38,278 nucleotides of DNA. Origin: Candidatus Moanibacter sp. GTDB lineage: Bacteria > Verrucomicrobiota > Verrucomicrobiia > Opitutales > UBA2987. Position numbers and translations under genes: made by a program. Under the pieces are notes generated by a model, which saw nothing but the letters and a program-made list of their open reading frames with translations, did not search any database and was not told the DNA's origin. Where the stretch lies: NCBI GenBank assembly GCA_965215885.1, contig CBDCEW010000025.1:1-38278 (forward strand). The letters run 5' to 3'. Positions within the stretch are counted from its first letter, which is position 1. The number at the start of each line of letters is the position of its first letter. This document shows positions 1 to 22,755 of this stretch, in pieces.

Positions 1-222
1 TCAAGGCCACGCGATAATTTGACCGAGAACGGCTGTTTCTCTTTTAGGCATGACTTTCTGATTTTCGCTCGTAATGTCCCTCATGGGTTGGTCTTTTTTT
101 ATCTTTCACATGCTGAGATCCAGTCTGGGAGCCTGAAGGACATTGCCGACAGAAAACTAGAGGCAAGTTACTGGGAAAACTACCCTGAATTTCTAAGGTT
201 TACGGGACGCCACCTCCAATGA
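1..222 (+). CDS. 3' end of an upstream gene (partial, unknown product), coupled to the glycosyltransferase gene
   Basis: Frame is open from base 1 to TGA at 220-222, which overlaps the ATG at 219 (ATGA overlap). No recognisable motif. Confidence 0.45.
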   Translation, partial: SRPRDNLTENGCFSFRHDFLIFARNVPHGLVFFYLSHAEIQSGSLKDIADRKLEASYWENYPEFLRFTGRHLQ

Positions 223-1403
223 AACTGGAAAAAGTCATCACTTTGGCCAACGAATCGGTGCGTATTCTCTTTCTCGCGATGGTTCGTTCGCTGCGCGCGA
301 CTGAGTGTGAACTGCCCGTCTGCGTGATTCCGTATGATGATCGCAGATTTGAGCTTCCCGAGGGCTGTCAATGGTGGGAAATTCGAGAAGTGTTGGAGTG
401 GCTCGACACCCTCGAACCTTACCGACATTCGCAACATTTAATGCGCAAATACCAATGTCTCCTGACCGAGAATTATCAGTTTATTGATTCCGATGCGATT
501 TTCCTGCGCGATCCGGAGGCCGCCCTCGCTCCACACTCCGGATTCATAACTTCATGCGGCCATTGGCACAGCCCTGTTGAGACGTTTGACGAATATTCGT
601 TTCCCGTCTTACGCGAGCGCACGACGGTCTGGCAAGCGAGCGTATTCAACACGGGGCAATTTGCTTGTGACAGGCGCCTCTACGACTTTCAGGAATTAAA
701 GGAAACCGCGGAGGATGCGCGACATCGACGGACCGTACTTGAGAACCCTTTTCATGAACAACCGGGATTGAATTTACTGGTAAATCTGAAGTGTGTTTCG
801 GTAACGAATCTGACCTTGCCCCCGAACCACATGGAGTCTACTTGGGCCAATGATTACCCTGATGAATTCGAGTGCTTCTGGTCTGAAACCGGAGGAGAAC
901 CGTACTTGATTCATTGGGCTGGTAGAAAAGCTGATGGCTCCCGACCGATCGACCAACTTTTCTTCAAATTCTTGAGCCTTAGCGAAAAAGGAGAGTATTT
1001 AGGTGTAAATTCACATCAACAATCAAAGGAGATTCAAGAAATGAGTTCGCAACCGCATGCCACGTTCCATGCCGCCTATCACCCGGCGGCCTTTCATTCA
1101 GCGACATACCACGCCGGTCCCTATCAACCGGCCGCGTTTCATCCCGAGACATACCACGCCGGTCCCCATCAACCGGCTGCGTTTCATCCCGCGACATACC
1201 ACGCCGCCGGCTATCACTCGGCGGCATTTCACCCTGCCGTATACGACGCGCTGATATCCGGCCAGCACCACGGGAAGGCTGTGCCTTTGCGTGTTCAGCA
1301 GAGCTACCTGTCAGCAATCGCCCAGTTCCATGAAGCAACCGCAAAGGTGTTTTCTACGTGGGCCAAAGAACTCACGGAAGAGGCTGAAGATGCGAAAAAG
1401 TGA
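219..1403 (+). CDS. GT-A fold glycosyltransferase (GT8-like) with in-frame C-terminal His/aromatic repeat module
   Basis: aa 1-~265 carry GT8-like motifs: FIDSD (DxD), FNTG, EQPGLN, IHWAGRK. aa 275-394 are a repeat region plus a helix-like tail. Confidence 0.75.
   Translation: MKLEKVITLANESVRILFLAMVRSLRATECELPVCVIPYDDRRFELPEGCQWWEIREVLEWLDTLEPYRHSQHLMRKYQCLLTENYQFIDSDAIFLRDPEAALAPHSGFITSCGHWHSPVETFDEYSFPVLRERTTVWQASVFNTGQFACDRRLYDFQELKETAEDARHRRTVLENPFHEQPGLNLLVNLKCVSVTNLTLPPNHMESTWANDYPDEFECFWSETGGEPYLIHWAGRKADGSRPIDQLFFKFLSLSEKGEYLGVNSHQQSKEIQEMSSQPHATFHAAYHPAAFHSATYHAGPYQPAAFHPETYHAGPHQPAAFHPATYHAAGYHSAAFHPAVYDALISGQHHGKAVPLRVQQSYLSAIAQFHEATAKVFSTWAKELTEEAEDAKK
1041..1403 (+). CDS. Putative RiPP precursor peptide (120 aa, internal start): repeat core plus C-terminal follower
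   Basis: AAGGAG at 1026-1031, 9 nt before an in-frame ATG at 1041. 13 aromatic positions (F/Y/H), mostly followed by H and nearly all 5 aa apart. Its stop overlaps the start of the RRE-rSAM gene. Confidence 0.65.
   Translation: MSSQPHATFHAAYHPAAFHSATYHAGPYQPAAFHPETYHAGPHQPAAFHPATYHAAGYHSAAFHPAVYDALISGQHHGKAVPLRVQQSYLSAIAQFHEATAKVFSTWAKELTEEAEDAKK
1086..1244 (+). repeat. Imperfect 45-bp (15-aa) tandem repeat, about 3.5 units (AAFH[S/P]-[A/E]TYHA-GP[Y/H]QP)
   Basis: Units start at 1086, 1131, 1176 and 1221. Many differences are synonymous (gcg/gcc/gct, cat/cac), consistent with selection on the peptide in this frame. Confidence 0.9.
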
Positions 1404-2745
1404 TGCTGTGGCGTTCGCCTATCTGCGTCAAACCGTACCCGCCGTCCGGTGTAGGGATGGCGGTGCACAGTTCAGCTGGCACGATCTCAACATCTCCGTC
1501 AACGCTGCGGGGCTGAGGATTTTGAATGCCCTGGACGGTTCCACGGCCATACCGGAACTCGTAGCACGAGAGCAATGGGACCTCTCCGTCGTCCGCGAAT
1601 TCATTAGGCGATTCATCGACGCAGGTTTAATAATACCACTCCACGAACCCCAGCGTAGAGCTCGGCGCGGCTGGATAAAAACCACGCGACTGTCAGCGGT
1701 ATCTGTCGAGATTATCCAGCAGTGCAACCAGAATTGCGTCCGTTGCTATCTAACGGGTATCGTTCCCGAAGGTAACCATCTATCGCTCTCAGAATTGGAA
1801 GACCTGTTCCGTGATCTGAAGTGGTACGGGGTAACGGCAGTATGCTTAAGCGGCGGGGAACCGTTCATGCGATCCGAGTGGCCAGAGATCGTTCGCCTCG
1901 CGGTTTGTCACGATCTTCAAGTTTCAATTGCCACCAATTCAACATTTTTGAGTGCCGAGACCCTTGCCCGTATTCGAGAATCGGGAGTAGCTGCGCTTCA
2001 GATCAGTGTCGACGGCACGGAGGCCACCCACGATGCGACACGCCAGTCCCCAGGGTCGTTTATCGCGCTGAAAAAGGTCTTTCATTCTTGTGCCAGGGCA
2101 GGGGTCCCCGCATTCGCCATCACGAGCATAAGTCGCGAGAACGCCTCGGACATCCCATCCCTTAACAGCATCCTCCGGGAATGGGGTGCGGTTGGCCACA
2201 TTGTGAACCGCTACGTCCCAACCGGTGTTTCTACCGACGACTATGTGTGTAGCTCGCGACAACAGTTTGAGAGTGCACTCGTCGAGCTACGCGACCGCAT
2301 GGCGGTTCCCGTGACCTCCTGCGATCCGGTGATTAACCATTGGCTTGGCCGAAAACAAATGTGCGGCGCGGGTTATTACGGAGCGAGTGTTTCCGCAACG
2401 GGGATGGTAAAAATCTGTGATACCGTTCCGCACGATACATTGGGCAATGTACGGAATACGAGAATCGGTGATGCATTTGAAAGATCGCCCCTCGTCGGTA
2501 ATATCGTTGAGCGGCATCAAGAGGCTCTCTCGAATAACCGATGGCACGACGATCCCTGTTATGGTTGCCTCGCTCATCAGACAGCGTGTCACCGCAAAAT
2601 TGATGGCGAAGACCCCTATCACTTCTCAGCTTCAACTACGACGGCCGCAGCGAAGACGCATGCAATCGGCAACGGTGTTGTTCCTTATGTCAAGATCGAA
2701 CAACAAGGTGCAGGGAGCGTCGGAAGTGCATACTCGGAAAATTGA
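1390..2745 (+). CDS. Radical SAM protein with N-terminal PqqD-like RRE and C-terminal SPASM/twitch domain (peptide-maturase type)
   Basis: CNQNCVRC at 1723-1746; LSGGEP, IATNS and QISVDG motifs; C-terminal CGAG...GMVKIC...LGNV...CYGC...EDP; N-terminal 'VNAAGLRILNALDGS...VREFIRRFIDAGLI' is RRE-like. Start placed at ATG 1390 (GAGG upstream) rather than 1291. Confidence 0.9.
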   Translation: MRKSDAVAFAYLRQTVPAVRCRDGGAQFSWHDLNISVNAAGLRILNALDGSTAIPELVAREQWDLSVVREFIRRFIDAGLIIPLHEPQRRARRGWIKTTRLSAVSVEIIQQCNQNCVRCYLTGIVPEGNHLSLSELEDLFRDLKWYGVTAVCLSGGEPFMRSEWPEIVRLAVCHDLQVSIATNSTFLSAETLARIRESGVAALQISVDGTEATHDATRQSPGSFIALKKVFHSCARAGVPAFAITSISRENASDIPSLNSILREWGAVGHIVNRYVPTGVSTDDYVCSSRQQFESALVELRDRMAVPVTSCDPVINHWLGRKQMCGAGYYGASVSATGMVKICDTVPHDTLGNVRNTRIGDAFERSPLVGNIVERHQEALSNNRWHDDPCYGCLAHQTACHRKIDGEDPYHFSASTTTAAAKTHAIGNGVVPYVKIEQQGAGSVGSAYSEN

Positions 2746-2833
2746 TTCCGCTAGCCCGAACATTTCACAAACCTTCTACTACTACGACGGATCACACCGC
2801 CTGTCAATGCCTTCGCTGGCCAGGAAAAGCGGG

Positions 2834-5182
2834 CTAAGAATCTCCTTCCCCACCCTCCCACCGATACTTTTCCACTAAGGCTCGAAATCGCGGGTGGTCG
2901 CGAAGCGTGTCCATATGTGGATCAAGATTCAGTAGCTCGATCGGAATGCCATTAGGGACTGAATAATAGAGCTCCATCTGGGCGATTGCTTCTGCCGGTT
3001 GCCCGACCATTGTGTAAATTGTCGCGAGATGTAACGTGAATTTTGGACCCCCGAGGGCATCCTTAGAAACTGGATGAAGGCGAACCGCCAAGAGGCCTTC
3101 CCTGACGGCGTCCTCTTTTCTATTGAGACCTGCATAGGCAAATCCGAGAGCACTATGAACGCTAGCGTCCTTTGGCCTGCTGATGATTTCGCGCTCGAGA
3201 ATCTCTCTGGCCGAGGCAAAGGCTTTCGCCGCTCGCTGCCTTTCGCCGGCAGATTGGGCGGTTATACCCATCAGGAGTGATTTTGGTAGATAATCCCCGA
3301 GATACTGAAGCGTCTCTTCATCCGTCCTGGAAAGAAATTCATCCGCGGCTTCGTAATTGCGATCAAGAAACTCAACCCACCATCGATCGCGGTCTAACTC
3401 GGGATATCGTTCAACAGCAGACCTGAGGGGGCGAAGTTGCCTCTCTCGTATGTATCGAATATATCCCTTGACCAGTGCTGCCGACGAACTTTCAGGAGCG
3501 AGAGAAAGCGTCTTATCGATATAGTACTCCGCATCATCGAAGCGCCGGTGGCGATACAAAAGCCATGCCAGCGAATGAGTGAGTTGCGGATCATATGGGT
3601 TCAGAATGAGGGCCTTTTCCCACGTCTCAATCGCTTCTTCCGACCGTCCGGATTGGTAATACATCCACCCCTGATTCCACAGCAATTCGTCGCTACCGGG
3701 CAGCCCCTTTTCCGCTTTTGCAAACTCCGCGAGTGCCCGCTCGAAATCTCTATACGCGTCATAGTAGAACCAGCCCATCGCGAAATGCCCCGCAGGTAGA
3801 TCGGGGTCCAGCGCGACGGCTCGTTCCGCCGCCAGCCGGACTTTCTCCAGGCGCTCATCGATTTTCTCATAGGTAGCCCAATAAACCCCATCTACCGTCG
3901 ATAAACGGGCATGGGCCAGAGCAAAGTTTGGATCCAGTTCTACCGCTTGTGTGAGCAATTCACGCGCTCGCTCTAGATATTCCTCCGGCCAACCGGGGCG
4001 TTTGAGAAACTCCATTCCCTGCAAGTATAAATCGTAAGCTTGCAGGTTCTCGGTTGGCTTTTTCGCGACTCGGGCGACTTCCTCCGGTGAAAATTCAGCC
4101 TCCAGAGCTGTGGTGATCTGCCGGGCGATTTCGCTCTGAATCGCAAAGAGGTTCTCCACCGTCAACTCGCGGTCGAATGAATCGGACCAGAGTTGTTCGT
4201 CGCTTTCAGCGTCGATAAGCTGCACATTGATGCGCACGCGATTACCGGCACGCTGGACGCCTCCCTCCAGAACTGTCGCCACACCCAGTTCCCCGGCGAT
4301 CTCACTGATCTTCTTAGTGGTATTTCGATACCCAATCATCGACGTCCGCGAAATCACCTTCAAGTCGCGGATCTTAAAAAGAGCAGTCAATAAGTCGTCG
4401 TGAATCCCGTCGGCGAAGAAGGCCACATCCTCCTCATCAGCACTTCTGTTTTCAAAGGGTAAGACGGCGATAGATTTTCGATTTTCCTCGCTTCTCGGTA
4501 TGGCGCGGATTTCCGCTTCTTGTGGATCGGTTCTCCAGAATTTCACCGCCAGTATTCCCATCAAGATGACAATAACCACGGTCGCAGGCATCAACAAACT
4601 GACTCCGCGCCGTTCGACTTTGGTTTCGGGCGTGGTTGGAGCGGACCTCCCCTTCCCGAACCGGACATGGTATACCCGCACAGGACGCGCTATGTTTTTG
4701 ACCCTCCGCTCTCCGGAAAACTCAAAGGCAAACTGCAGGTTTTCCATAACACTGTCATGGACGCTCCCCGCCACGCAAATACCGCCGCCATCCGCGAGAC
4801 CCTCCATGCGCGCCGCTACATTGACTCCGTCACCATAAATCCGATCCCCTTCCGTAATGACATCACCGAGATTCACGCCGATGCGGTAGCGCATGCGCCG
4901 CCTCTCCGGTAGTGAAGCGTTTCTTCCCAGCATCTCGATTTGAATCGCAACTGCGCAATTGACCGCCGCAACGGCACTGGGAAATTCCGCCAGGATGTTA
5001 TCGCCGGGGGAATCGACGACTCTCCCACTGTGCTCCTCAATGAGACGACTCGCGACTTCTCGATACGCCTTCAGGGTACGGATCGTCGCCTCCTCATCTG
5101 TTTCCATGAGACGACTGTATCCCTCCACGTCGGCACTTAGAATGGCTCTAAGCTTGCGTTCCATCGTCCTCTTCCTAGCCAT
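2834..5182 (-). CDS. Class III adenylate/guanylate cyclase + TM + TolB-N-like domain + TPR repeats
   Basis: AILSADVEGYS, GDNILAEF, RIGVNLGDV...YGDGVNVAARME; hydrophobic segment; SIAVLPFEN...VISRTS...LEGGVQRAGNRVRINVQLID; TPRs. Confidence 0.9.
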   Translation of the reverse strand: MARKRTMERKLRAILSADVEGYSRLMETDEEATIRTLKAYREVASRLIEEHSGRVVDSPGDNILAEFPSAVAAVNCAVAIQIEMLGRNASLPERRRMRYRIGVNLGDVITEGDRIYGDGVNVAARMEGLADGGGICVAGSVHDSVMENLQFAFEFSGERRVKNIARPVRVYHVRFGKGRSAPTTPETKVERRGVSLLMPATVVIVILMGILAVKFWRTDPQEAEIRAIPRSEENRKSIAVLPFENRSADEEDVAFFADGIHDDLLTALFKIRDLKVISRTSMIGYRNTTKKISEIAGELGVATVLEGGVQRAGNRVRINVQLIDAESDEQLWSDSFDRELTVENLFAIQSEIARQITTALEAEFSPEEVARVAKKPTENLQAYDLYLQGMEFLKRPGWPEEYLERARELLTQAVELDPNFALAHARLSTVDGVYWATYEKIDERLEKVRLAAERAVALDPDLPAGHFAMGWFYYDAYRDFERALAEFAKAEKGLPGSDELLWNQGWMYYQSGRSEEAIETWEKALILNPYDPQLTHSLAWLLYRHRRFDDAEYYIDKTLSLAPESSSAALVKGYIRYIRERQLRPLRSAVERYPELDRDRWWVEFLDRNYEAADEFLSRTDEETLQYLGDYLPKSLLMGITAQSAGERQRAAKAFASAREILEREIISRPKDASVHSALGFAYAGLNRKEDAVREGLLAVRLHPVSKDALGGPKFTLHLATIYTMVGQPAEAIAQMELYYSVPNGIPIELLNLDPHMDTLRDHPRFRALVEKYRWEGGEGDS

Positions 5183-5602
5183 TGGCTGAGTGTTGATCTA
5201 TTTTTCCCCGACCTGCCAATCATTCGGGCAACTTCACCGTATTTACGAATTGGAATATTAAGCGGGGGCATGGATGCAATAGAATTGTTCATGCTAAAAC
5301 AATCCTCTTAAGTGTGTAAAGTAATGATAGCGAGCCACAACCTTAGATACCTCAGGCTTCCCGAGGTGCAAATTCCTTTGTGTCTACTTTTTATTCTAAA
5401 CTGGTCTAAGTACTCCAATTAGTAAACATGGTTAGGTATGTGGGAGCGCTATCGGGGGGTAGATTGTCTTGAGTAATCGTTTCCTTTGGGAGATTCTCAT
5501 GCCAGCAGCCGGTCGGACTTTGTTCGATCCCGGCTTGCCGGGACTAGAAACAGGAGCGGGAAAGACATATCGGATAAGTCCGCGATTTCGAAAAACTTAG
5601 AA

Positions 5603-8383
5603 ATGGCTCAGCGAACTGCCGATAGGACCTCTCCTGACCGGCCGCACCGTTCTCAGCACGACGAACGCGCCGAAAGTTTGCGCTGTTGTGACGTTTTCGC
5701 AAACCTATCTGACCGCGATTTGCAAAGGATCGTGGTAGTGGCAGAGAAGGTAAAGGTCCCGGCCGGCCGGCAGTTCATCGTGCAGGACCGCACGGCCACG
5801 TTCGTGGATGTTTTGATATCGGGCCGCGCGCTTGTCTACCGGAAGATGGAGGAGGGCGAAGAGCTATCCCTCGCCGAGGTTCATGCCGGGGAAATGATTG
5901 GGGAGATGGGATATTTTTCGGAGGGTGTTCGGACAGCTTCGGTAAAAGCAATTGAAGAAACCCATCTGCTCCGCATCCAATACGCCGATTTCTTCTACCT
6001 GTTCGATCAGATACCCGTTCTAGCTCAGGCCTTTCTCTCGCTTCTGACCCACCGACTGCGGGATGCCAACATGCGCTATCAGAACAGCCTGCACCAACGG
6101 CGGCTGGCGGAACGGTCACTGAAGCATCTTACCGATTTCCTGGACCTTTCGGACGAGTTGGTCCTGGGCAAAGGAATTGAGGCCTTGATCAACCGGATCG
6201 TGCAGATGGCGTCCAAGGTAATGAAGGCGGACAGGGCTTCGCTTTTTCTCGTGGATCCTGCTACCGGCGACCTCTGGTCACGAGTGGCGGAGGGAGAAGA
6301 TACAAAAATGATAACTATTCCCGCGGGGACCGGCATTGCCGGGTGGGTCGCACAGCATGACAGCATACTGAACATCAGAGAGGCTTACAATGACGAGCGC
6401 TTCAACCCCGCTGTAGATAAGGCCACAGGTTACCACACCAAGACAATCCTCAGTGGTCCGGTAAGAGATCTGCAGGGGCGAGTGATCGGGGTCATTCAGG
6501 TTATCAACAAACTAAAGGGTGAGTTCGATGATCAGGACATTAGCCTGTTCAACGCCTTTGCCCACCAAGCGTCGGTCGCGGTCGAAAACAGCAATCTTTA
6601 TCAGCGCTTGATGACGAGCCATCAGAAGATGGCGATCTTGTTGGATGTCGCCAACTCAGTAAGCCAAACCCTGGAGCTTCCAATTCTTATCCACAAAATA
6701 ATCGAGAAAACTACCGAAATTCTTTTATGCGACAGATCGTCTTTCTTCATTCTTGACCGCGAAAGAAACGAATTGTGGTCAATGGAAGCGAAGGGGACTG
6801 AACTGAAAGAGATACGCTTTCCCGCCACCCTCGGGTTAGGGGGTTATACGGCGACGCACAATGAGATTTTGAATATCAAGGACGTATATCAGGACCCACG
6901 CTTTAATCGGGAAATCGACAAACGGACCGGCTATCGCACCTACAGCATGCTCTCGGTTCCGGTCGACAACCGCCAGGGAGAGGTGATCGGAGTCATACAG
7001 GCCGTAAACAAAAAAGGAGGAGTATTTGAAACAGAAGATGTAGAACTCTTAAAGGCCATCTCTTCGCAGATCGGAGTGGCGTTGGAAAATTCCCAGCTCT
7101 ACGCCGATACTATCAGTATCAAAAACTATCTTAAAAGCGTGCAGGAATCCATTACGAACTGCATCATCACGCTGGACCCCTCCTGCAACGTGGTTACGGC
7201 AAACCGGGCCGCTTATGAGCTGTTTGGTTTGCAGGAGGACAATGAGGGGGCAGGTCTGCTCGGAGCCAGTCTTGAGGAGTTACTGGGCGACAAGGATCAT
7301 TCAATTGTTCAACTGGTCAGAGAAGTCTGCAAGTCGCAGAACAGCATCGTCGAGTACGACATCAGCTTACAACTTCCCAACGATCAATCGCATTCAATCA
7401 ATGCTAACGTTCTGCCCCTGACGGATCACGAAGAGAAATTTCGTGGTGTCGTCATCGTTTTGGAAGACTTCTCATTGGAAAAGCGGCTGAAGAGTAACCT
7501 GACTCGCTACCTGGCCAAGGATATCGTGGAGAAGATGCTATCAGACCCCAAGATGCAAGCCTTGGGTGGGGAGCGCATCAAAGCGACCGTGCTGTTTACG
7601 GACATTCGGCAGTTTACGCCAATGGCGGAAGGTTTGTCCGCTGAAGCAACCATGGATTTTCTCAACGAATACTTTACGATCATGGTCGATGAGGTCATTC
7701 GCCAAGGTGGCTTGCTGGACAAGTTCATTGGAGATTCCCTCCTGGCCGTATTCGGCGTGCCTTATAATCGTGATGATGACGCTCTACGTGCCGTCTATGC
7801 CGCGCTGAATATGCAGGAAGTTCTTAACGAATTTAATCGCCGTCGAAAGGATAAGGGTCTTGGTGCGGTGCGGATGGGTATCGGTATCAACACCGACGAA
7901 GTGATCTCTGGAAATCTTGGATCGGAAAAGAAGATGGACTATACCGTGATTGGGGATGGGGTTAACATTTCGTCCCGTTTGGAAGGGCTCAATAAAAACT
8001 ATGGTACGCATATTCTTCTCTCCGATTCCACCCTGAAAGAGATCGGCGACCGCTTCACCACCCGGCCGATTGACTACGTGCGCGTGAAAGGAAAAACCGC
8101 ATCGATCTTAGTTCACGAAGTGCTTGGAGACAGTTCGTTAGGGTTCACGGAGTCACAAGTACTCTTTAACAAGGGTTTTCAGGCCTATCGCAATCGCGAT
8201 TTTGCCCAAGCCGTCAATATCTTCAGCAAGGGTTCACGCGGCGACCGGCTTTTCGCCACCTCTTTGGAGAGGTGCAATCATTTGCTCGAACACCCCCCCA
8301 GCGAGGACTGGGATGGGGTTTGGACAATGCACGACGAAACCGTTACTTATCCCTCGAGTGAATATGAATCGGGTTCGGACTAA
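5603..8383 (+). CDS. Adenylate cyclase, cNMP-binding + GAF + GAF + PAS + class III catalytic domain (CyaB1-like)
   Basis: IGEMG...RTASV (cNMP-binding); two GAFs (D-x-RFN...D..TGY.T...NK); PAS; LFTDIRQFT, DKFIGD, DYTVIGDGVNISSRLE. ATG 5603 preferred over TTG 5486. Confidence 0.92.
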   Translation: MAQRTADRTSPDRPHRSQHDERAESLRCCDVFANLSDRDLQRIVVVAEKVKVPAGRQFIVQDRTATFVDVLISGRALVYRKMEEGEELSLAEVHAGEMIGEMGYFSEGVRTASVKAIEETHLLRIQYADFFYLFDQIPVLAQAFLSLLTHRLRDANMRYQNSLHQRRLAERSLKHLTDFLDLSDELVLGKGIEALINRIVQMASKVMKADRASLFLVDPATGDLWSRVAEGEDTKMITIPAGTGIAGWVAQHDSILNIREAYNDERFNPAVDKATGYHTKTILSGPVRDLQGRVIGVIQVINKLKGEFDDQDISLFNAFAHQASVAVENSNLYQRLMTSHQKMAILLDVANSVSQTLELPILIHKIIEKTTEILLCDRSSFFILDRERNELWSMEAKGTELKEIRFPATLGLGGYTATHNEILNIKDVYQDPRFNREIDKRTGYRTYSMLSVPVDNRQGEVIGVIQAVNKKGGVFETEDVELLKAISSQIGVALENSQLYADTISIKNYLKSVQESITNCIITLDPSCNVVTANRAAYELFGLQEDNEGAGLLGASLEELLGDKDHSIVQLVREVCKSQNSIVEYDISLQLPNDQSHSINANVLPLTDHEEKFRGVVIVLEDFSLEKRLKSNLTRYLAKDIVEKMLSDPKMQALGGERIKATVLFTDIRQFTPMAEGLSAEATMDFLNEYFTIMVDEVIRQGGLLDKFIGDSLLAVFGVPYNRDDDALRAVYAALNMQEVLNEFNRRRKDKGLGAVRMGIGINTDEVISGNLGSEKKMDYTVIGDGVNISSRLEGLNKNYGTHILLSDSTLKEIGDRFTTRPIDYVRVKGKTASILVHEVLGDSSLGFTESQVLFNKGFQAYRNRDFAQAVNIFSKGSRGDRLFATSLERCNHLLEHPPSEDWDGVWTMHDETVTYPSSEYESGSD

Positions 8384-11273: not shown

Positions 11274-12584
11274 ATGCAGAAAAGGGAAAAAACAAATCGA
11301 TATAGTGTGGTGATAGGAATTGATTGGGCGGATCAGAAAAACGATCTGTGGATCATAGAGAGCGAAACGGGAAAAGGGACCCATCGACAGGTGGCGCAGG
11401 ATGCGGTCAGCTTGCACGAATTTGCCGTAGAGATGAGAGAAAAGTATGCCAGCGTGGGCAAGCGCATGGCCATGGTGGTGGACCAGAAGCGAGGAGGGTT
11501 GATCAACTTTCTGATGGGCTTGGAGTTTGTCGATATCTATCCAGTGCATGCGGCCAGGGCGAAGGATTATCGCCGGGCGCTGTATCCATCAGGGGCCAAG
11601 AGCGACCCGGTCGATGCGCAAATACACGCGGAGTTTTTCCTCAAACATCCCGAGCTTTTTACCAAATGTTTCATACCTGACACGGCCCAAACACGGGAGC
11701 TGAACCTGTTGTGCGAGGACCGCCGTGGATTCGTCGATCAGGCTACCAGCCTCGAACAGCAGTTGGGCAGTTGTCTGAAGCAATATAACCCTTTGGTCTT
11801 GAAATTGTTCGATGATCTAGGCAGTGGCCTGTGCCTGCACTTTATATTGCGTTGGCCGACCCTCAAGAAGCTGCACAGAGCATCGGAGGGTGTCTTGCGA
11901 AAGTTCTTCTATAAGCACAACTGTCGCAGTGACGCCAAAATCCAGGAGCGTCTCGAATTGATCGGTAACGCACGAGCCTTGACCGAAGATGCAGCCATCA
12001 TTGAAGCATCCAGCAGAAAAGCACAGACGTTGGCCGGACAGCTTTTGACCCTGTGCCCGCAGATCAAAGCGTATGAGAAGCGTATCAGGGAGCTATTCAG
12101 AAGCCATCCCGATGCAGCCGTGTTCAGTGGCATTCCCGGAGCCGGCGAGGTCATGAGTCCCCGGTTGCTGTGCGCGTTCGGGACCGATCGTTCGCACTTC
12201 GAAACGGCCCAGAACATGACCCAGTGGAATGGATCCGCTCCGGTCACGATCAACAGCGGGCAGGACAAAAGAACCGGACAACCGAAACGAATGGTCAACT
12301 GGCGGTGGGCGGCTCCTACCTTCGTGCGGCAAAGTTTCGTTGAATTTGCCGAACATTCGATCCGAAACTGTGCCTGGGCAAAGGCCTTTTACCAGATCAA
12401 AAAAGAACAGGGCAAACCCCGCCAAACCATTCTTCGTGCCCTCGCTCTCAAGTGGACCCGCATTCTGTTTCGCTGTTGGCAAAATAGCGAACGCTACGAT
12501 GAGCAAAAGTATCTCCAATCGCTCCAACGCACCGGTTCACCGGTGTGGAAAAGACTTCAGCAAGCAAATGCCAACGCCTTGTAA
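11274..12584 (+). CDS. IS110 family transposase/recombinase (DEDD RuvC-like + Transposase_20 domain)
   Basis: VIGIDW, KSDPVDA, GIPGAG, GSAPVTINSG (catalytic Ser region), WAKAFY...ALALKWTRILF. Confidence 0.95.
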   Translation: MQKREKTNRYSVVIGIDWADQKNDLWIIESETGKGTHRQVAQDAVSLHEFAVEMREKYASVGKRMAMVVDQKRGGLINFLMGLEFVDIYPVHAARAKDYRRALYPSGAKSDPVDAQIHAEFFLKHPELFTKCFIPDTAQTRELNLLCEDRRGFVDQATSLEQQLGSCLKQYNPLVLKLFDDLGSGLCLHFILRWPTLKKLHRASEGVLRKFFYKHNCRSDAKIQERLELIGNARALTEDAAIIEASSRKAQTLAGQLLTLCPQIKAYEKRIRELFRSHPDAAVFSGIPGAGEVMSPRLLCAFGTDRSHFETAQNMTQWNGSAPVTINSGQDKRTGQPKRMVNWRWAAPTFVRQSFVEFAEHSIRNCAWAKAFYQIKKEQGKPRQTILRALALKWTRILFRCWQNSERYDEQKYLQSLQRTGSPVWKRLQQANANAL

Positions 12585-17197: not shown

Positions 17198-17280
17198 GTC
17201 ATCGCGAGCCGACCGCAGGGAGGCGTGGCGATCCAGTGCAGGGTTCACCTCCCTATCCTTATTCCAGGATCGCCGCAGTC
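17198..17280. repeat. Degenerate palindromic element (GTCATCGCGAG...GTGGCGATCC...GGATCGCC)
   Basis: Internal inverted repeat GGCGATCC/GGATCGCC; resembles, from memory, the GTCATTGCGAG-type dispersed palindromes. Confidence 0.4.
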
Positions 17281-17307
17281 CTCCCTTTTGCCTCAGCGGC
17301 TGGCGAA

Positions 17308-17403
17308 TCAGGAGGTTTCCCATTTCTCAACTTCGAGTCCGGGCACCCTCACGAACTCCTTCACATAGGCCGAAAACGCGTTGGTATCGGGGAAGTAGAT
17401 CAC
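17308..17403 (-). pseudogene. vapC: Internally deleted VapC (PIN) toxin, 31 aa
   Basis: GTG overlaps the antitoxin stop; MIYFPDTNAFSAYVK (PIN N-terminus, DTN) is fused directly to EFVRVPGLEVEKW (PIN C-terminus). Confidence 0.8.
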
Positions 17404-17639
17404 TCAAAGTCTCGCCGGGTATCAGCGTTCGCATTAACCTGCACTTCGGGAAAATCAGGACAGGAACCACGTAATTTCCGGAATCGGGCGACCTTCTTTT
17501 TTATCGCTGAGGGATCTCGAATAATCAGCCCCGAGTCGATCTTCTCAATCGTAAGGGTGCCACTTTTCAATCGGAACTCTTTCGGAATGCGTACTGCTTG
17601 GGAATTCCCATTCTTGAATACTCTTGTGGTCAATTTCAT
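17400..17639 (-). CDS. vapB: AbrB/MazE-type VapB antitoxin (79 aa)
   Basis: MKLTTRVFKNGNSQAVRIPKEFR; start ATG at 17639. Confidence 0.9.
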   Translation of the reverse strand: MKLTTRVFKNGNSQAVRIPKEFRLKSGTLTIEKIDSGLIIRDPSAIKKKVARFRKLRGSCPDFPEVQVNANADTRRDFE

Positions 17640-17741
17640 CTCAACGTGTGTATTGTGTATACGACAGATTCTGGTTGTCGAGCCTGACCAGAATGGCGCT
17701 AAGATAACGGTCATAAATTGTATGTCCGGCCTCGGTCGTCT

Positions 17742-17805
17742 TCGGCCGCAAGCAGCCTTCCTACAACAACATAAGGTGCCTGTAGGAAGCTCGCTTGCGA
17801 GCGAT
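17742..17805. repeat. Pair of GTAG-type REP sequences in opposite orientation
   Basis: TCGGCCGCAAGCAGCCTTCCTAC and GTAGGAAGCTCGCTTGCGAGCGAT; the latter (17782-17805) is identical to 29140-29163. Confidence 0.75.
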
Positions 17806-17950
17806 AATCCCGGTATCGCAGTGCCATTCAAATCTGACCATTTACTTCCTGTAACTTCTGTTCAGTCAGAAACCTTTCAGTGAAAGAATCGCAATTGCGT
17901 TGCCTTCTGGTTGCGAAAACGCAACGGTTGCGCGACCAAGTTCCCGAAAG

Positions 17951-19304
17951 ATGCAACGCTCCTCCCCGAGACATCGCACGGTCAAAACGCTATTTCCGGC
18001 GGGTCTTTTCATCGGAGTTATTCTTGTCTGTGGTCTCATTTTTAACCTGAGAAGGGCCGATCGCGTCTCGAACGATTCCGAAATCCCCGATTCATCGAGC
18101 CATAGTTCGAGGGTGGAGAGGGACGCGGACGAGCATCCCGACGGAAGAACGGGTAGGGGGAGCTACAAGCACTCGCCCCCCGGTGAGGATTCTCAGCCAA
18201 CCCTTGACTCAATAGATGAGGCCTGGTCTCGGATCTCAAATGGCAGTTCGACAGAGGAAACACTCGCCATTCTGATCGAACTGAGAAAAGTCCTCGCATC
18301 CGGTAGCAGGAAAGAAGGAGCGGAGGCGCTCCTGGAGTTCCTCAAGAGCAGGAAGGATGCATCGACAGGATTGCCTTTTCATCTGAACAACAAGGGCTTT
18401 CTCGACCATGCCCCAACCCTGCGAGTATTCGCCTATGATCAATTGGGAAGATTAGATCCGGGTTCAGCTAAGGATTACGCGTATACCGTTCTCGATTCGA
18501 ATGACTCGGGAGCGGAGTGGGCAATCGCCCTGCGGAGTATCGGTAAATTGATGAGCCCCCGAGAAGCCTCTTCGAATGTCTATTTTCTCGACAAACTGGA
18601 AGAATTGCTGGGCAATCGCCCTGCGGAGTATCGGTAAATTGATGAGCCCCCGAGAAGCCTCTTCGAATGTCTATTTTCTCGACAAACTGGAAGAATTGCT
18701 AGGCTATGATCCCTGGCTCGAAGATCCCTCGATGGGCTTTCTGCAGTCTTTTGACGCAGTCGTTTATAGTGGCAATCCGGCGCTCGCCGCGCGATTGGCT
18801 TCCCTTATTAACGACGCTTCGACCCTCCGGGCGGTTCGCTATGCCGCGACTCTGGCTCTCGACCGAATGGTGCTGGACCAGTTCAGGTCAATCGTCCCCG
18901 ACCTTCGGCGGGATCCTGAGCTTCTTTCTGCTTATCCAAAAGTGCGGTCGAATCTTCTGGCAAGAGCCGATTTGAGAATACCGGAAGAAAGAGTAATTGT
19001 CGAAGACTACCTCTTGGATGAGAACGTATCGGAAGCGGAATTAGCTCATTTTGTAAGTGCATTCCCAAACGCGAATCTGGAGATCTCCTATAATCTCCTG
19101 ACTCGACCGAAAAGATCCACGATCTCCGATTTGATTCAGCACGATCGGTCCGCTTATGCGGTGGTAGTTGATTGGAAATCGGATGCAAGATTTTCCCATA
19201 TTGCTCAAAAGATCGAAGTCATTGAGAGCAGGCTGAAGAGGTTTCTGGAGTCGGCGGAAAGGGGCCGACGGCAAACCGTCGCGCGGAATAACGGAGTCCA
19301 GTAA
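17951..19304 (+). pseudogene. Membrane-anchored helical hypothetical protein (~420 aa) frameshifted by a 91-bp tandem duplication
   Basis: ORFs 17900-18637 and 18576-19304 share the peptide WAIALRSIGKLMSPREASSNVYFLDKLEELLG; deleting one copy joins them in frame. Confidence 0.75.
18518..18700. repeat. Perfect 91-bp tandem duplication
   Basis: Copies start at 18518 and 18609. Confidence 0.95.
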
Positions 19305-19305
19305 C

Positions 19306-21810
19306 ATGAGTTTCGAATTCTCCAGGTTCCGTGCAGGTGGCAGATGCAGGCTTCTACTCGCTCATGCACTTGCCGCATCGTGGATTATCAATTCCGCCTC
19401 CGCTCAGATTGAGCAGCGACTGCCGAATCCGGTCAGTGATGTCTCCGTCAAACCCTATTCAGATGTCGGGCTCGTTTCTTCCTCCGGAGGTTCGGGAAGT
19501 GGATTCGTCCTGAAGAGTCCACGTGTGATTCTATCCGCTGCGCACGTCTTTCATGATGACGACGGTAACCTGGAGTTTCAAGACGCGACCTGGCACCGGC
19601 AGCATCACGGCCAATTTTTCCCTTTATCGTCCTCGGGAATTCCCCTGCGTCGTATCTGGTCGTTTACCGGGCCCTCCGGGTATGGCGCGATGGTGGCGGA
19701 GAACGGGGTTCGCGATTTAGAATCCTTCAACATCGATATCGTGGCCATACATGGATACCAAGATCTCGGCGACGGAGAAAACGCCGATTTCTACCTTGAC
19801 GGCAGGGAGGCCCTTCGATCGGAGCGCGAGAAAAAGATCATAGGGTATCCTTCTTCTCTTTACGACGACGTCGTCCGTCCCTCTTCAAGCTCCTCCAGGT
19901 ATCGCATGCACGAGACCAACTCGAGTTTTACCCCATACAGTGCAGGAATGCCCGCGTCACCATTTTTTCTAAGAGTGCTTAGCGCCGACAAGGACGAGAC
20001 CGATCTCATCTCCGCTCCGGGAAACAGCGGGGGAGCCGCAATGGTCCAGGACGAAGTTGGTAACTGGCGTGTGGCCGGTGTAACTGTAGCCCACCAGCCT
20101 GATCTCATAATAGGAGAAGATTCGGAAGGAGAGGACATCACAGCCGGTCGAAACGGCGCCAGCGCTCTAAGAGAAGAAGTGTTCCGAGAGCTGGTTGATC
20201 CCGCCTTGGAAAATTCGAGTCTACCTCCGTCACCGACTGGCCTCAGGGCCTCTGACGGGACCCAAGACTTCTTCGTCCGGATACTTTGGTACAGCATTGA
20301 TGGAGCCGGCGTTTCTGAGCTCTTCCGCAATACGATCAACTCAACGACAGGTGCGGAGATGATTTACGCGGGAGGAAGCACCTTTTTCGACGATCGAACC
20401 ATAGATCTGGACATCGTTTACTATTATTTTGTGAGAGCGCGGATAGGAGACACAGTAACGGGCCTCTCCGCGGGCGAGAGCGGGTTTGTGGCTGATAAGA
20501 ATATCTCCGACTTGAGCTTGAGCAATTTTGAGTTCTTTCCGCTTCGGCTGAAACCAAATGATGTCCCTGAAAGAGTTTCCTATCGAATAACAAACGAAGG
20601 CTCTTCGCATTTTGATAATGAAGGTCAGCGATTCCTGGTAAGCCTCTTCTTATCGAAGGATGACTCTCGCGATCCTTTCGATGACTGGATTAGATTCAGC
20701 CCCTGGTCTGATGGATCTCTCGCCAAGGGTGAGAGTTGGGACCTAACGGTACCCCCGAATGAGTTGAGTCGCCTGATCATCCCGGAGAATGTTTCCGGTA
20801 TCCGGCACGTCTATGCGTCCGTAGTGTTGGAGCCCAGTCATACGGAAATCGATACCCGTGTCGGGAATAACAGTATTTTCCTGGAATCTCCGATTCTCAT
20901 TGCGAAATCGGAGGGAGCAGAAGGTCTCAGGGTTGAGGGGGAGGCGGATTTGGTTAACGATGGCACCGAATTCCAGGGATTCATCTACAATGGTTTCCAA
21001 CTGGTTGAGGATCGTGGAGTGTTCGCTTCGGAGCCAGGCACAATTACGCGAGTCTCCATGTTGGATCCGGGAGGCGACTTGATTTTCTTTGAGTTTGGCA
21101 GCGACAACCCTGCCACAACGATGGAGATTATTGTCGACGAGGGTTACCTCCAGAAGGTGCCTTCCCCCTACAACCAGGAAGGGGTAACCTATACGCAGGG
21201 ACTCGCCTCCGTCACTATTCGGTATGCCACCGAATTGACCTTCATTTCCGTATTCTCCCTTGGCAACGATCCCAATAGAATCAATCTCACCCTTATCAAT
21301 GCGCAAAGCTTCCCCGAAAACGCAGACGGTATGGCGGACATCAAGAAGCTGAGTATCGAATCGATTGATGGAAAGATTGGAGGAATCAATCTGGCGAACG
21401 CAAATCTCACCGATTCCTCTGAATGCAGTCCCAATGAAACTTTCGGCCTGATCGCCGAATCGATCCAGCATTTCTGCTTTCTCGGTGACATCACCTATGT
21501 CGAAGGTGGTGGAATTCCCACAATCCAGATCAGTCCCGATTCGCCGATCGATCAAATCCTGGTTTCGGGAGGTGATTTCTTTGAATCCGGTCAAGGCAAC
21601 GAGGAGGCAAAGATCAGGACATTGGGTAGAATCTATCCCTTTCCCTTTGTCGTCACTGATGCACAACGCTCAATAGCGAATTCTCAATTTCGCGAGGATC
21701 TGGAAGACGGGAAGATCCCGGCTTCGCGCGACACTATCCTGATCGATCCGGACCGTTACTTTGACACCCCAGGTCAAACCGTGAAACTCCATCCCGACCT
21801 AGAAGAATAA
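19306..21810 (+). CDS. Secreted trypsin-like serine protease with FN3 and CARDB/Ig-like domains and an unrecognised C-terminal domain
   Basis: Signal peptide (...INSASA); GSGFV...LSAAHV, DIV, PGNSGG triad motifs; PTGLRASDG...YYYFVRA (FN3); DLSLS...ITNEG...GNN (CARDB-like). Confidence 0.8.
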   Translation: MSFEFSRFRAGGRCRLLLAHALAASWIINSASAQIEQRLPNPVSDVSVKPYSDVGLVSSSGGSGSGFVLKSPRVILSAAHVFHDDDGNLEFQDATWHRQHHGQFFPLSSSGIPLRRIWSFTGPSGYGAMVAENGVRDLESFNIDIVAIHGYQDLGDGENADFYLDGREALRSEREKKIIGYPSSLYDDVVRPSSSSSRYRMHETNSSFTPYSAGMPASPFFLRVLSADKDETDLISAPGNSGGAAMVQDEVGNWRVAGVTVAHQPDLIIGEDSEGEDITAGRNGASALREEVFRELVDPALENSSLPPSPTGLRASDGTQDFFVRILWYSIDGAGVSELFRNTINSTTGAEMIYAGGSTFFDDRTIDLDIVYYYFVRARIGDTVTGLSAGESGFVADKNISDLSLSNFEFFPLRLKPNDVPERVSYRITNEGSSHFDNEGQRFLVSLFLSKDDSRDPFDDWIRFSPWSDGSLAKGESWDLTVPPNELSRLIIPENVSGIRHVYASVVLEPSHTEIDTRVGNNSIFLESPILIAKSEGAEGLRVEGEADLVNDGTEFQGFIYNGFQLVEDRGVFASEPGTITRVSMLDPGGDLIFFEFGSDNPATTMEIIVDEGYLQKVPSPYNQEGVTYTQGLASVTIRYATELTFISVFSLGNDPNRINLTLINAQSFPENADGMADIKKLSIESIDGKIGGINLANANLTDSSECSPNETFGLIAESIQHFCFLGDITYVEGGGIPTIQISPDSPIDQILVSGGDFFESGQGNEEAKIRTLGRIYPFPFVVTDAQRSIANSQFREDLEDGKIPASRDTILIDPDRYFDTPGQTVKLHPDLEE

Positions 21811-21849
21811 TAGTCCCGATAATCAATCCCCCGTCCACTCCCGCGAGCA

Positions 21850-22233
21850 TAACGAAGGCAGCCAATCGACTATCGAGTAGTTACATTGGTCAGGGTACTC
21901 GGGGCCTCCCCTGGCGGTTTACTCCCCAAGAGCTCTCTCGTCGCTCGCCTGGTTACTTCTCTGCCGTTGCACGGCTCGATGCTGTCTTAGACCCCTGGGC
22001 GGCTCCCTGATGGAGAGGATCGGCTCAGTCCCAAACTTGGTGGTTCTCGGGGCTACGTGTCAGATTCAGAGCTACACCCTTCACCCCGCCGCACTCGCTA
22101 ATTTCCTTTCTTCCTTTCGGTCTTCTCAGTCATTTCACTTCGGGGCCGCTGACCAGGCACTACCCGGGGAGGCTTACATGCCGTTGACATGTTCCTCCTC
22201 GACAGCCAACCATTGCCAGGCTGCCCCATCATT
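21850..22233 (-). ncRNA. Candidate large structured RNA, group II intron domain-I-like
   Basis: Basal stem 21857-21863/22219-22225; hairpins at 21874-21901, 21963-21975, 22048-22088 and 22176-22192; G-U pairs favour the minus strand. Confidence 0.45.
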
Positions 22234-22245
22234 CCACTCCTTTTC

Positions 22246-22755
22246 TCACTCTCTCAAAATCTCATCCACATCCAGCGGTTCATCGAGAGCCATGGATGCG
22301 ACACGCCGGAATAGAGTCGCAGTGTGCACGACACCGATGGCACGCCTTCCCTCAGCGACTGGAAGAAAGTCCAGACCCGCGCGCACAACCTTCCGGATAG
22401 CATCGACGATGGAATCGTGAGCCCGAAGCAGGGGCGGGTCTTTGATGGCGGCTTCGAAGACGCTCGATTGCAGCCGACCTTGTGCCCGTTCGAGAAAATC
22501 CCTTGCGGAGTGATCTTCGTTGACCGCCTCTTTGAAAGAGCCATCAACATGCGTTTCGTCCGCACACAGACCCTGTAGTAAAGCGAGCGGGGAAACGATA
22601 CCGGAAACGTCGCCTTCGCTATCCAAAATCACCATGGCCGGAAAGCTACCGTCCCGTTCCATTGCCGCTACGGCGATACCGAGGGTTTCGCGAAGGGTAT
22701 GCCCGCTGCCCAGCCTGATGTAGGAGGGACTGATCAGATCACCTAAGTCCGACAT
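22246..22755 (-). CDS. CBS domain-containing protein
   Basis: MVILDSEGDVSGIVS and FLPVAEGRRAIGVV form a CBS pair. Confidence 0.8.
   Translation of the reverse strand: MSDLGDLISPSYIRLGSGHTLRETLGIAVAAMERDGSFPAMVILDSEGDVSGIVSPLALLQGLCADETHVDGSFKEAVNEDHSARDFLERAQGRLQSSVFEAAIKDPPLLRAHDSIVDAIRKVVRAGLDFLPVAEGRRAIGVVHTATLFRRVASMALDEPLDVDEILRE

Follow-up and report, generated by a model that had tools for sequence, protein, structure and literature searches.

What is encoded at the start of contig CBDCEW010000025.1 of Candidatus Moanibacter sp. (GCA_965215885.1), where a peptide built of aromatic and histidine-containing repeats lies between a glycosyltransferase (GT)-like gene and a radical S-adenosylmethionine (SAM) gene? 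We analysed positions 1 to 38,278 of the forward strand, a stretch of 38,278 nt referred to here as the window, which is the start of contig C25 in a mobile-element-rich assembly of 6.36 Mb. The initial annotation of this DNA had proposed that the three genes form a new system for a peptide synthesised ribosomally and modified post-translationally (RiPP). The locus is best read as a minimal cassette of two genes, one for the repeat peptide (1041-1403) and one for the radical SAM enzyme (1390-2745). Judged from sequence, the former is probably a RiPP precursor that carries several cores and ends in a C-terminal follower, the latter its maturase, and the GT is probably not part of the system. 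The elements of the locus are the following, where RRE stands for RiPP recognition element and MITE for miniature inverted-repeat transposable element.

219..1040, plus strand: GT-like gene, assigned by family comparison; its frame continues into the peptide.
1026..1031, plus strand: Shine-Dalgarno-like AAGGAG, 9 nt 5' of the internal ATG at 1041.
1041..1403, plus strand: putative RiPP precursor of 120 aa, with a 6-residue N-terminus, 13 aromatic-His pentapeptides and a tail of ~50 residues.
1059..1250, plus strand: repeat (putative multi-core) region, residues 7-70, pattern x-x-[F/Y/H]-[H/Q/D]-[A/P/S].
1251..1403, plus strand: tail, candidate follower, P-x-R-V and then an amphipathic, acidic, helix-like segment; it resembles the tail of the homologue P0140.
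1390..2745, plus strand: radical SAM enzyme of 451 aa, with an RRE-like N-domain (~1-90), CxxxCxxC at 112/116/119 and a Twitch-type C-terminus.
2751..2821, plus strand: truncated MITE-like repeat beginning CTAG, with genome-wide copies; 3' edge of the cassette.

Translation from the ATG at 1041 gave the 120-residue sequence quoted in the initial annotation, with the AAGGAG upstream of it, and the radical SAM gene was also correctly described as starting inside the peptide gene, the overlap being 14 nt. The peptide is composed of 13 units of the form x-x-[FYH]-[HQD]-[APS]; units 1 and 2 share one residue, and units 2-13 (residues 11-70) keep a strict 15-nt register. All 13 units have F, Y or H in third place and A, P or S in fifth; His stands at position 4 in 10/13. 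At the DNA level, the three AAFHP units, the same in amino acids, use differing synonymous codons, and the two in-register ATYHA units do not differ. Runs of at least three consecutive units of this kind were found nowhere else in the six-frame translation of the 6.36-Mb genome, and no Pfam model matched the window peptide (P0002) at E<=10.

Is this architecture peculiar to the window? A search of 1.84 billion representatives returned 34 matches including the window's own protein, and the sole other match aligning over nearly the whole peptide was P0140, of 105 aa (E 2.2e-6, query residues 6-111), whose gene sits on a contig of 597 nt. The remaining 32 matches were confined to the repeat stretch, and the nine of them examined were low-complexity repeats without the tail. 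From residue 1 on, P0140 shares the start M-x-x-Q-P-x-A-x-F-H-A, with F9 and H10 in the same positions, and it continues in 12 in-register x-x-[FM]-[HNQ]-[APS] units, in which position 3 is F in six and M in six and position 4 is His in ten. In the two peptides together, position 5 is A, P or S in 25/25 units and Pro in 11 of them, and position 4 is His in 20/25; two places after such a His, Ala stands in 13 of the 20 cases and a residue with a Cβ in 18, in a count that leaves aside two His at other positions. The tails of the two peptides align with a local score of 38, which was reached by 45 of 20000 shuffles and by 23 of 50000 real protein segments; BLASTP of the tail gave no alignment. 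Thioether chemistry is excluded because neither P0002 nor P0140 contains Cys. Further peptides of this kind were found neither in metagenomes (0/24), nor in 400 genomes of the phylum, nor in plasmids searched with P0140; a word-index search with the two-sequence profile recovered P0140 alone among 35 candidates, and the ESM Atlas gave no usable peptide match.

We then asked whether the adjacent enzyme has the marks of a peptide maturase. As the initial annotation would have it, it belongs to the radical SAM superfamily (Pfam PF04055, E 5e-19, 69.5 bits against a cut-off of 29.5), and Cys112, Cys116 and Cys119 of its CxxxCxxC motif are invariant across three homologues; among the best 25 of 60 NCBIfam families no cut-off was reached. 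Of the two flanking domains then proposed, an RRE-like N-terminus was retained in a weak form and a SPASM-like C-terminus was given up. The N-terminal 90 residues were modelled, with moderate confidence, as three strands followed by three helices, and this beta3-alpha3 order defines an RRE (PMC12710340). Among Foldseek matches of this domain the best row was TigE (E 0.017, probability 0.84), with TbiB1, CteB and TbtB in the top ten, and PqqD matched it with 12.8-15.1 bits against a cut-off of 23.4 (E 0.03-0.05), the locus being the third-best site in the genome at 12.8 bits. Weakly but consistently, and with every signal below its cut-off, these results point to an RRE-like N-terminus. By fold as well as by profile, the best match of the enzyme in the PDB was SkfB (6EFN). 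The idea of a precursor with its maturase therefore holds, on the N-terminus, register and tail kept by P0140, the beta3-alpha3 domain and the match to SkfB.

The C-terminus appears to be Twitch-like. The Cx2Cx5Cx3C motif of the second auxiliary cluster (AuxII) of SPASM domains was absent in 3/3 homologues, and TIGR04085 had no match at the locus. The cysteines shared after the barrel are 311, 325, 343 and 393, arranged as C325-x12-G338-x4-C343 plus C311 and C393; a Twitch domain has the first half of the SPASM fold, with C-x(9-15)-G-x4-C plus further Cys ligands. In agreement, positions 1-51 of PF13186 match the enzyme (E 0.0036), and its orthologues P0005 and P0006 score at or above the cut-off of that model. 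Because the AuxII motif is absent and only four cysteines are shared, a single auxiliary cluster is expected: the sequence fits a Twitch-type C-terminus with one fully ligated cluster and not a full SPASM domain, in a part where the structural model is unreliable. Both P0005 and P0006 conserve the N-domain as well as the four C-terminal cysteines, and the GYW motif of cyclopropyl synthases is absent in 3/3 homologues. Residues 427-437 of the enzyme itself (P0003), near its C-terminus, and the C-termini of P0005 and P0006 share a short motif ending V/T-P-Y/F-V/I (in P0005 by eye). The tail of TigE sits in the groove of its own RRE (PMC10878394), and by analogy the shared motif could be a self-binding tail.

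The enzyme family is small in the collections that were searched. P0005 (49%) and P0006 (43%) were the only close clusters, with nothing else at E 1e-20 among the 7999 candidates scored; P0006 is fused to a GNAT domain. Orthologues were found neither in GTDB contigs (0/14 pattern matches, a second search giving one weak unrelated match of 62), nor in JGI metagenomes (0/165) or viral contigs (0/64), nor in 60 relatives (best E 3e-11). Genomes of the phylum (400; best 118 bits, the matches covering mostly the radical SAM core only) and of the order (400; 0 at E<=1e-35) had none either, and plasmids gave generic matches of at most 32% identity.

How would the two products work together? Translation of the peptide would begin at the ATG at 1041, and the 14-nt overlap suggests that the radical SAM gene is translationally coupled to it. 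The RRE-like N-domain of the enzyme would then hold the peptide, most likely by the conserved tail, because only six residues precede the first repeat; the tail is thus a plausible candidate for a follower bound by this domain. By analogy with known maturases, the SAM-derived radical would abstract a hydrogen from the Cβ of the small residue, the Cβ would couple to the ring two residues upstream, and the spare electron would be taken by the single four-Cys auxiliary cluster. The process could be repeated over up to ~12 units, with a change of -2 Da each. The ring may be the position-4 His (H-x-A, as in HaaB and ScaB) or the position-3 Phe or Tyr (F/Y-H-[A/P/S]). For a ring at position 3, the triceptide precursor pattern, aromatic-X2-X3 with a Cβ at X3, occurs in 13/13 units of the window peptide and in only 6/12 of P0140; the His-based version occurs in 18/20. 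Since the cassette is without a protease or transporter gene, the product may not be cleaved at all, or genes elsewhere may provide for its processing. While we consider the pairing of precursor and maturase probable, repeated three-residue ring-to-Cβ crosslinks like those of HaaB and ScaB are, as an overall claim, a tentative proposal to which we give somewhat less than even weight.

A number of results weigh against the precursor-maturase reading and its crosslinks. On the peptide side, AGGAG precedes 272 of 16049 internal ATGs and 72 of 1726 5' starts, so that the Shine-Dalgarno site is modest evidence for a start at 1041. Half of the P0140 units carry Met at position 3, Gly is the last residue of two His triplets in the window, and the tail statistic is somewhat inflated, as the tail had contributed to the search score by which P0140 was picked out. 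P0140 also has weak matches to the Decapeptide (E 0.012), Pentapeptide_4 (E 0.15) and DotG repeat (E 0.008) families. On the enzyme side, all RRE signals are sub-threshold: Foldseek gave no match of the N-domain at E<=0.001, VIA-align returned only generic winged helices (best Z 4.0, with no RRE among the matches listed), and the model of the N-domain alone has a predicted local distance difference test score (pLDDT) of 58. The top NCBIfam scores, far under their cut-offs, are those of the heme and cofactor enzymes AhbD and NirJ. Against the triceptide-synthase models the enzyme reached 13.1 bits for TIGR04261 (cut-off 310) and was not listed for TIGR04269 and TIGR04496; these models represent the FxsB, GRRM and XyeB families, all three are absent from the best 25 NCBIfam families, and the sequences of HaaB and HtkB were not directly compared. 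By these scores it falls outside the triceptide-synthase families examined, although its mode of action may resemble theirs. Finally, Pfam identified no protease or transporter gene in the cassette, and the pairing of peptide and enzyme is known from one locus only.

Comparison with known systems places the pair close to several of them and inside none. SkfB has a similar domain order, RRE, radical SAM core and short auxiliary-cluster domain. It makes a Cys thioether, whereas the peptides here have no Cys, and the enzyme scores 54 against the 300-bit cut-off of the SkfB family. HaaB, ScaB and HtkB likewise are radical SAM enzymes, His-crosslinking triceptide synthases encoded beside a peptide with several His-x-x motifs, and HaaB and ScaB provide the precedent of crosslinks from His C2 to Ala Cβ on HAA (PMC11499958, PMC11002830); HAA, HPA and HSA recur here. 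The window system differs from them in its lack of a score for the triceptide models, its fused RRE-like domain, the missing AuxII, and a precursor in which the cores come first, in tandem, followed by a C-terminal tail in place of a leader. In WprABC, a Twitch-type enzyme crosslinks repeated three-residue WPR motifs with Pro in the middle; that chemistry, however, joins Trp and Arg on three spaced motifs with a separate chaperone, and WprB is without AuxI cysteines whereas our enzyme is without AuxII (PMC11851443). Tandem short repeats used as cores are found in TvgA/TvgB and TigB/TigE, the latter with an RRE-bearing radical SAM enzyme (PMC9062424, PMC10878394), but the window has no GYW, no Cx2Cx5Cx3C, no conserved Val/Ile in the repeat and no transporter or peptidase genes. 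HxsABCD also matures His-containing repeats by radical SAM enzymes; here there is no evident signal peptide or peptidoglycan-binding domain, one enzyme stands against two plus HxsD, and the motif is not His-x-Ser (PMC13128918). The bottromycin precursor BotA is a precedent for a leaderless peptide with a C-terminal follower, but it has a single core, other enzymes and a dedicated hydrolase that removes the follower (PMC10885120). None of the titles and abstracts listed in the literature searches, which mostly lacked subscription journals, described the present system; the family could still be contained in supplementary precursor tables of papers that mined genomes for radical SAM enzymes. On sequence grounds, it is a probable new precursor/maturase family within the radical SAM RiPPs.

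The same pair could nevertheless act without any crosslink, by epimerisation at one position per repeat, which is mass-neutral, or by another radical change such as hydroxylation, cleavage or an HXS-like carbon insertion. Epimerisation at many sites is well suited to long and regular arrays of small hydrophobic residues, and Cys152 and Cys234, invariant in 3/3 homologues, could be the hydrogen donors, although this invariance rests on three sequences. A precedent for a non-crosslink change on a His repeat, of +8 Da, is provided by HXS (PMC13128918). The match of the enzyme to EpeE/YydG is, however, a generic one (E 2.7e-4), and the strict pattern of ring, His and small residue fits ring-to-Cβ coupling. 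We consider this alternative unlikely, but it is the one that survives best.

Alternatively, the repeat protein could be an unmodified His-lined beta-solenoid or a metal-binding mini-protein with a capping helix, the enzyme having some other target. The A-x-F-x-x pattern recalls the pentapeptide beta-helices, the repeat-family matches of P0140 point the same way, and the best family scores of the enzyme are those of cofactor enzymes. Those P0140 scores for the pentapeptide and decapeptide models are, however, 15.9 and 12.6 bits, below the cut-offs of 45 and 38; the window peptide itself is without a Pfam match, and the super-periods are 15 versus 10 residues. Pentapeptide beta-helices need a left-handed turn residue at position 5, which is the position that Pro occupies in 11/25 units. 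The enzyme, moreover, carries the additional RRE-like domain and its gene overlaps that of the peptide, and for these reasons we regard an unmodified solenoid as quite unlikely.

The place of the GT remained to be settled. The peptide had been described as a free-standing open reading frame, but there is no stop between 219 and 1403: GT and peptide form one frame of 394 codons, which is called as a single protein in the protein collection. Contigs from other samples were compared, of which X2 spans 1-1152 and RNA run X7 spans 723-1028 and 2048-2276, the coverage by X7 being no measure of transcription. The fusion is not an error of a single assembly, because neither X2 (1-1152) nor X7 (723-1028) lists a stop-making change. 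In run X4 the sequence passes at 1014 into an insertion element, which we take to be of the IS4 family from the look of its transposase; its left end occurs 42 times in the genome, and the element measures ~1319 nt (one copy at G000 C12:50094). This element would bring the GT frame to a stop 13 codons farther on, 5' of the AAGGAG of the peptide. The far side of the X4 contig does not return to the window and the contig is possibly an assembly chimera, so it is silent on what follows the insertion.

The relatives of the GT live in another setting. It belongs to a widespread surface-glycan family with 646 homologues; the 119 others listed, without exception 256-306 aa long, end in a basic amphipathic helix segment that is absent here, where similarity fades after residue 256. 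A fusion of GT and peptide was found in 0/119 listed homologues and at 0/12 loci; these were 12 of the 13 non-self loci, examined with 1.5-kb flanks after exclusion of a weak 23% match (L023). At 12/12 loci the GT ends after 286-297 aa; the next gene is a GT2 gene in nine, WecG in one, GT4-like in one and unassigned in one, and neither a repeat peptide nor a radical SAM gene was apparent beside it. Homologues of these neighbours lie on other contigs of the same genome, mainly C95. The DxD motif noted in the initial annotation is found as an invariant D90-x-D92, DxD-like, while its GT8-like label was not borne out: the window GT has no Pfam match itself, and a homologue matches PF03407. The family is related to NF045582, that of Npun_R2821/R2822, but is separate from it by sequence (40.5 bits against a cut-off of 250, and 37.1 bits for the homologue P0011), and the GT profile found nothing meaningful among PDB sequences. 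Its members, mostly unnamed and located in surface-glycan clusters, have an invariant MESTWAxDY / HWAG motif.

The GT is thus probably a surface-glycan gene that was displaced and truncated and that, having lost its stop, runs on into the peptide in this lineage. The fusion looks incidental because the listed GT homologues are unfused and P0140 starts at the matching Met. Glycosylation of Tyr, Ser or Thr in the repeats, suggested earlier, is not supported: the GT comes from a family of surface-polysaccharide clusters and stands here in a truncated, fused form, and of the two enzyme orthologues one carries a GNAT domain instead. Could the GT nevertheless belong, as the enzyme half of a borosin-like fusion that glycosylates the repeats at its own end, with the radical SAM enzyme acting on the same repeats in trans? 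The single frame, uninterrupted in X2 and X7 and called as one protein, would allow this, and the repeats do contain Tyr, Ser and Thr; but the absence of fusions from the listed homologues, the polysaccharide clusters, a free-standing P0140 that has no Tyr, the missing terminal helix and the insertion that breaks the frame in X4 make it very unlikely. Weakest of all is the possibility that the repeat is a degenerate expansion of the C-terminal end of the GT, unlinked to the enzyme: some GT homologues end in an AAWHA-like motif aligning with the first unit and aromatic-His-[APS] occurs in the last 30 residues of 7/119 listed homologues, but beyond residue 250 all 119 have at most one such motif, P0140 keeps the same start and tail, and the AAFHP codons are scrambled, which makes this origin highly improbable.

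Returning to the paired precursor and maturase, new clades of radical SAM maturases tend to bring new bonds, and the present enzyme reaches no family cut-off shown while its putative substrate is encoded alongside; only two genes are needed. The comparison systems have three WPR and up to five TIGSVS repeats (PMC11851443, PMC10878394). If the proposal is true, ~12 tandem cores under a C-terminal follower would exceed these counts and would offer a route to poly-macrocyclic His-rich peptides with a leader-free N-terminus. Its boldest form is a new RiPP class, leaderless and follower-directed, in which about a dozen back-to-back His/aromatic macrocycles with an undescribed linkage, formed by a radical SAM enzyme with one auxiliary cluster, would make up one uncleaved polymacrocyclic mini-protein, possibly a rigid metal-binding scaffold, and read-through would hang the array on the GT; this form we consider rather unlikely.

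Around the cassette, a scan for promoters and terminators at the locus gave results at chance level, and PADLOC gave generic viperin scores only. At the left border, a 73-codon open frame at 1-222 runs off the contig start and overlaps the ATG of the GT; it matched neither a Pfam model nor any neighbour of the GT homologues, and the X2 contig likewise ends ~32 nt beyond the window start. At the right border, the full form of the MITE-like element measures ~180 nt with CTAG ends, and the genome contains 145 matches at E<1e-5; as the copies are dispersed genome-wide and start with CTAG, we rejected the idea that 2751-2821 is an integron attC site. Farther into the window, 17236-22420 holds five long plus-strand frames, one of 834 aa with a signal-peptide-like start, with no Pfam or PADLOC match, and Pfam identified an IS110-family transposase at 11274-12584. 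In the Pfam scan, an adenylate-cyclase-like gene lies beyond the MITE-like repeat in convergent orientation. Two divergent class III nucleotide cyclase genes occupy 2834-5182 and 5486-8383, one with tetratricopeptide repeats and the other with a cNMP-GAF-GAF-PAS arrangement.

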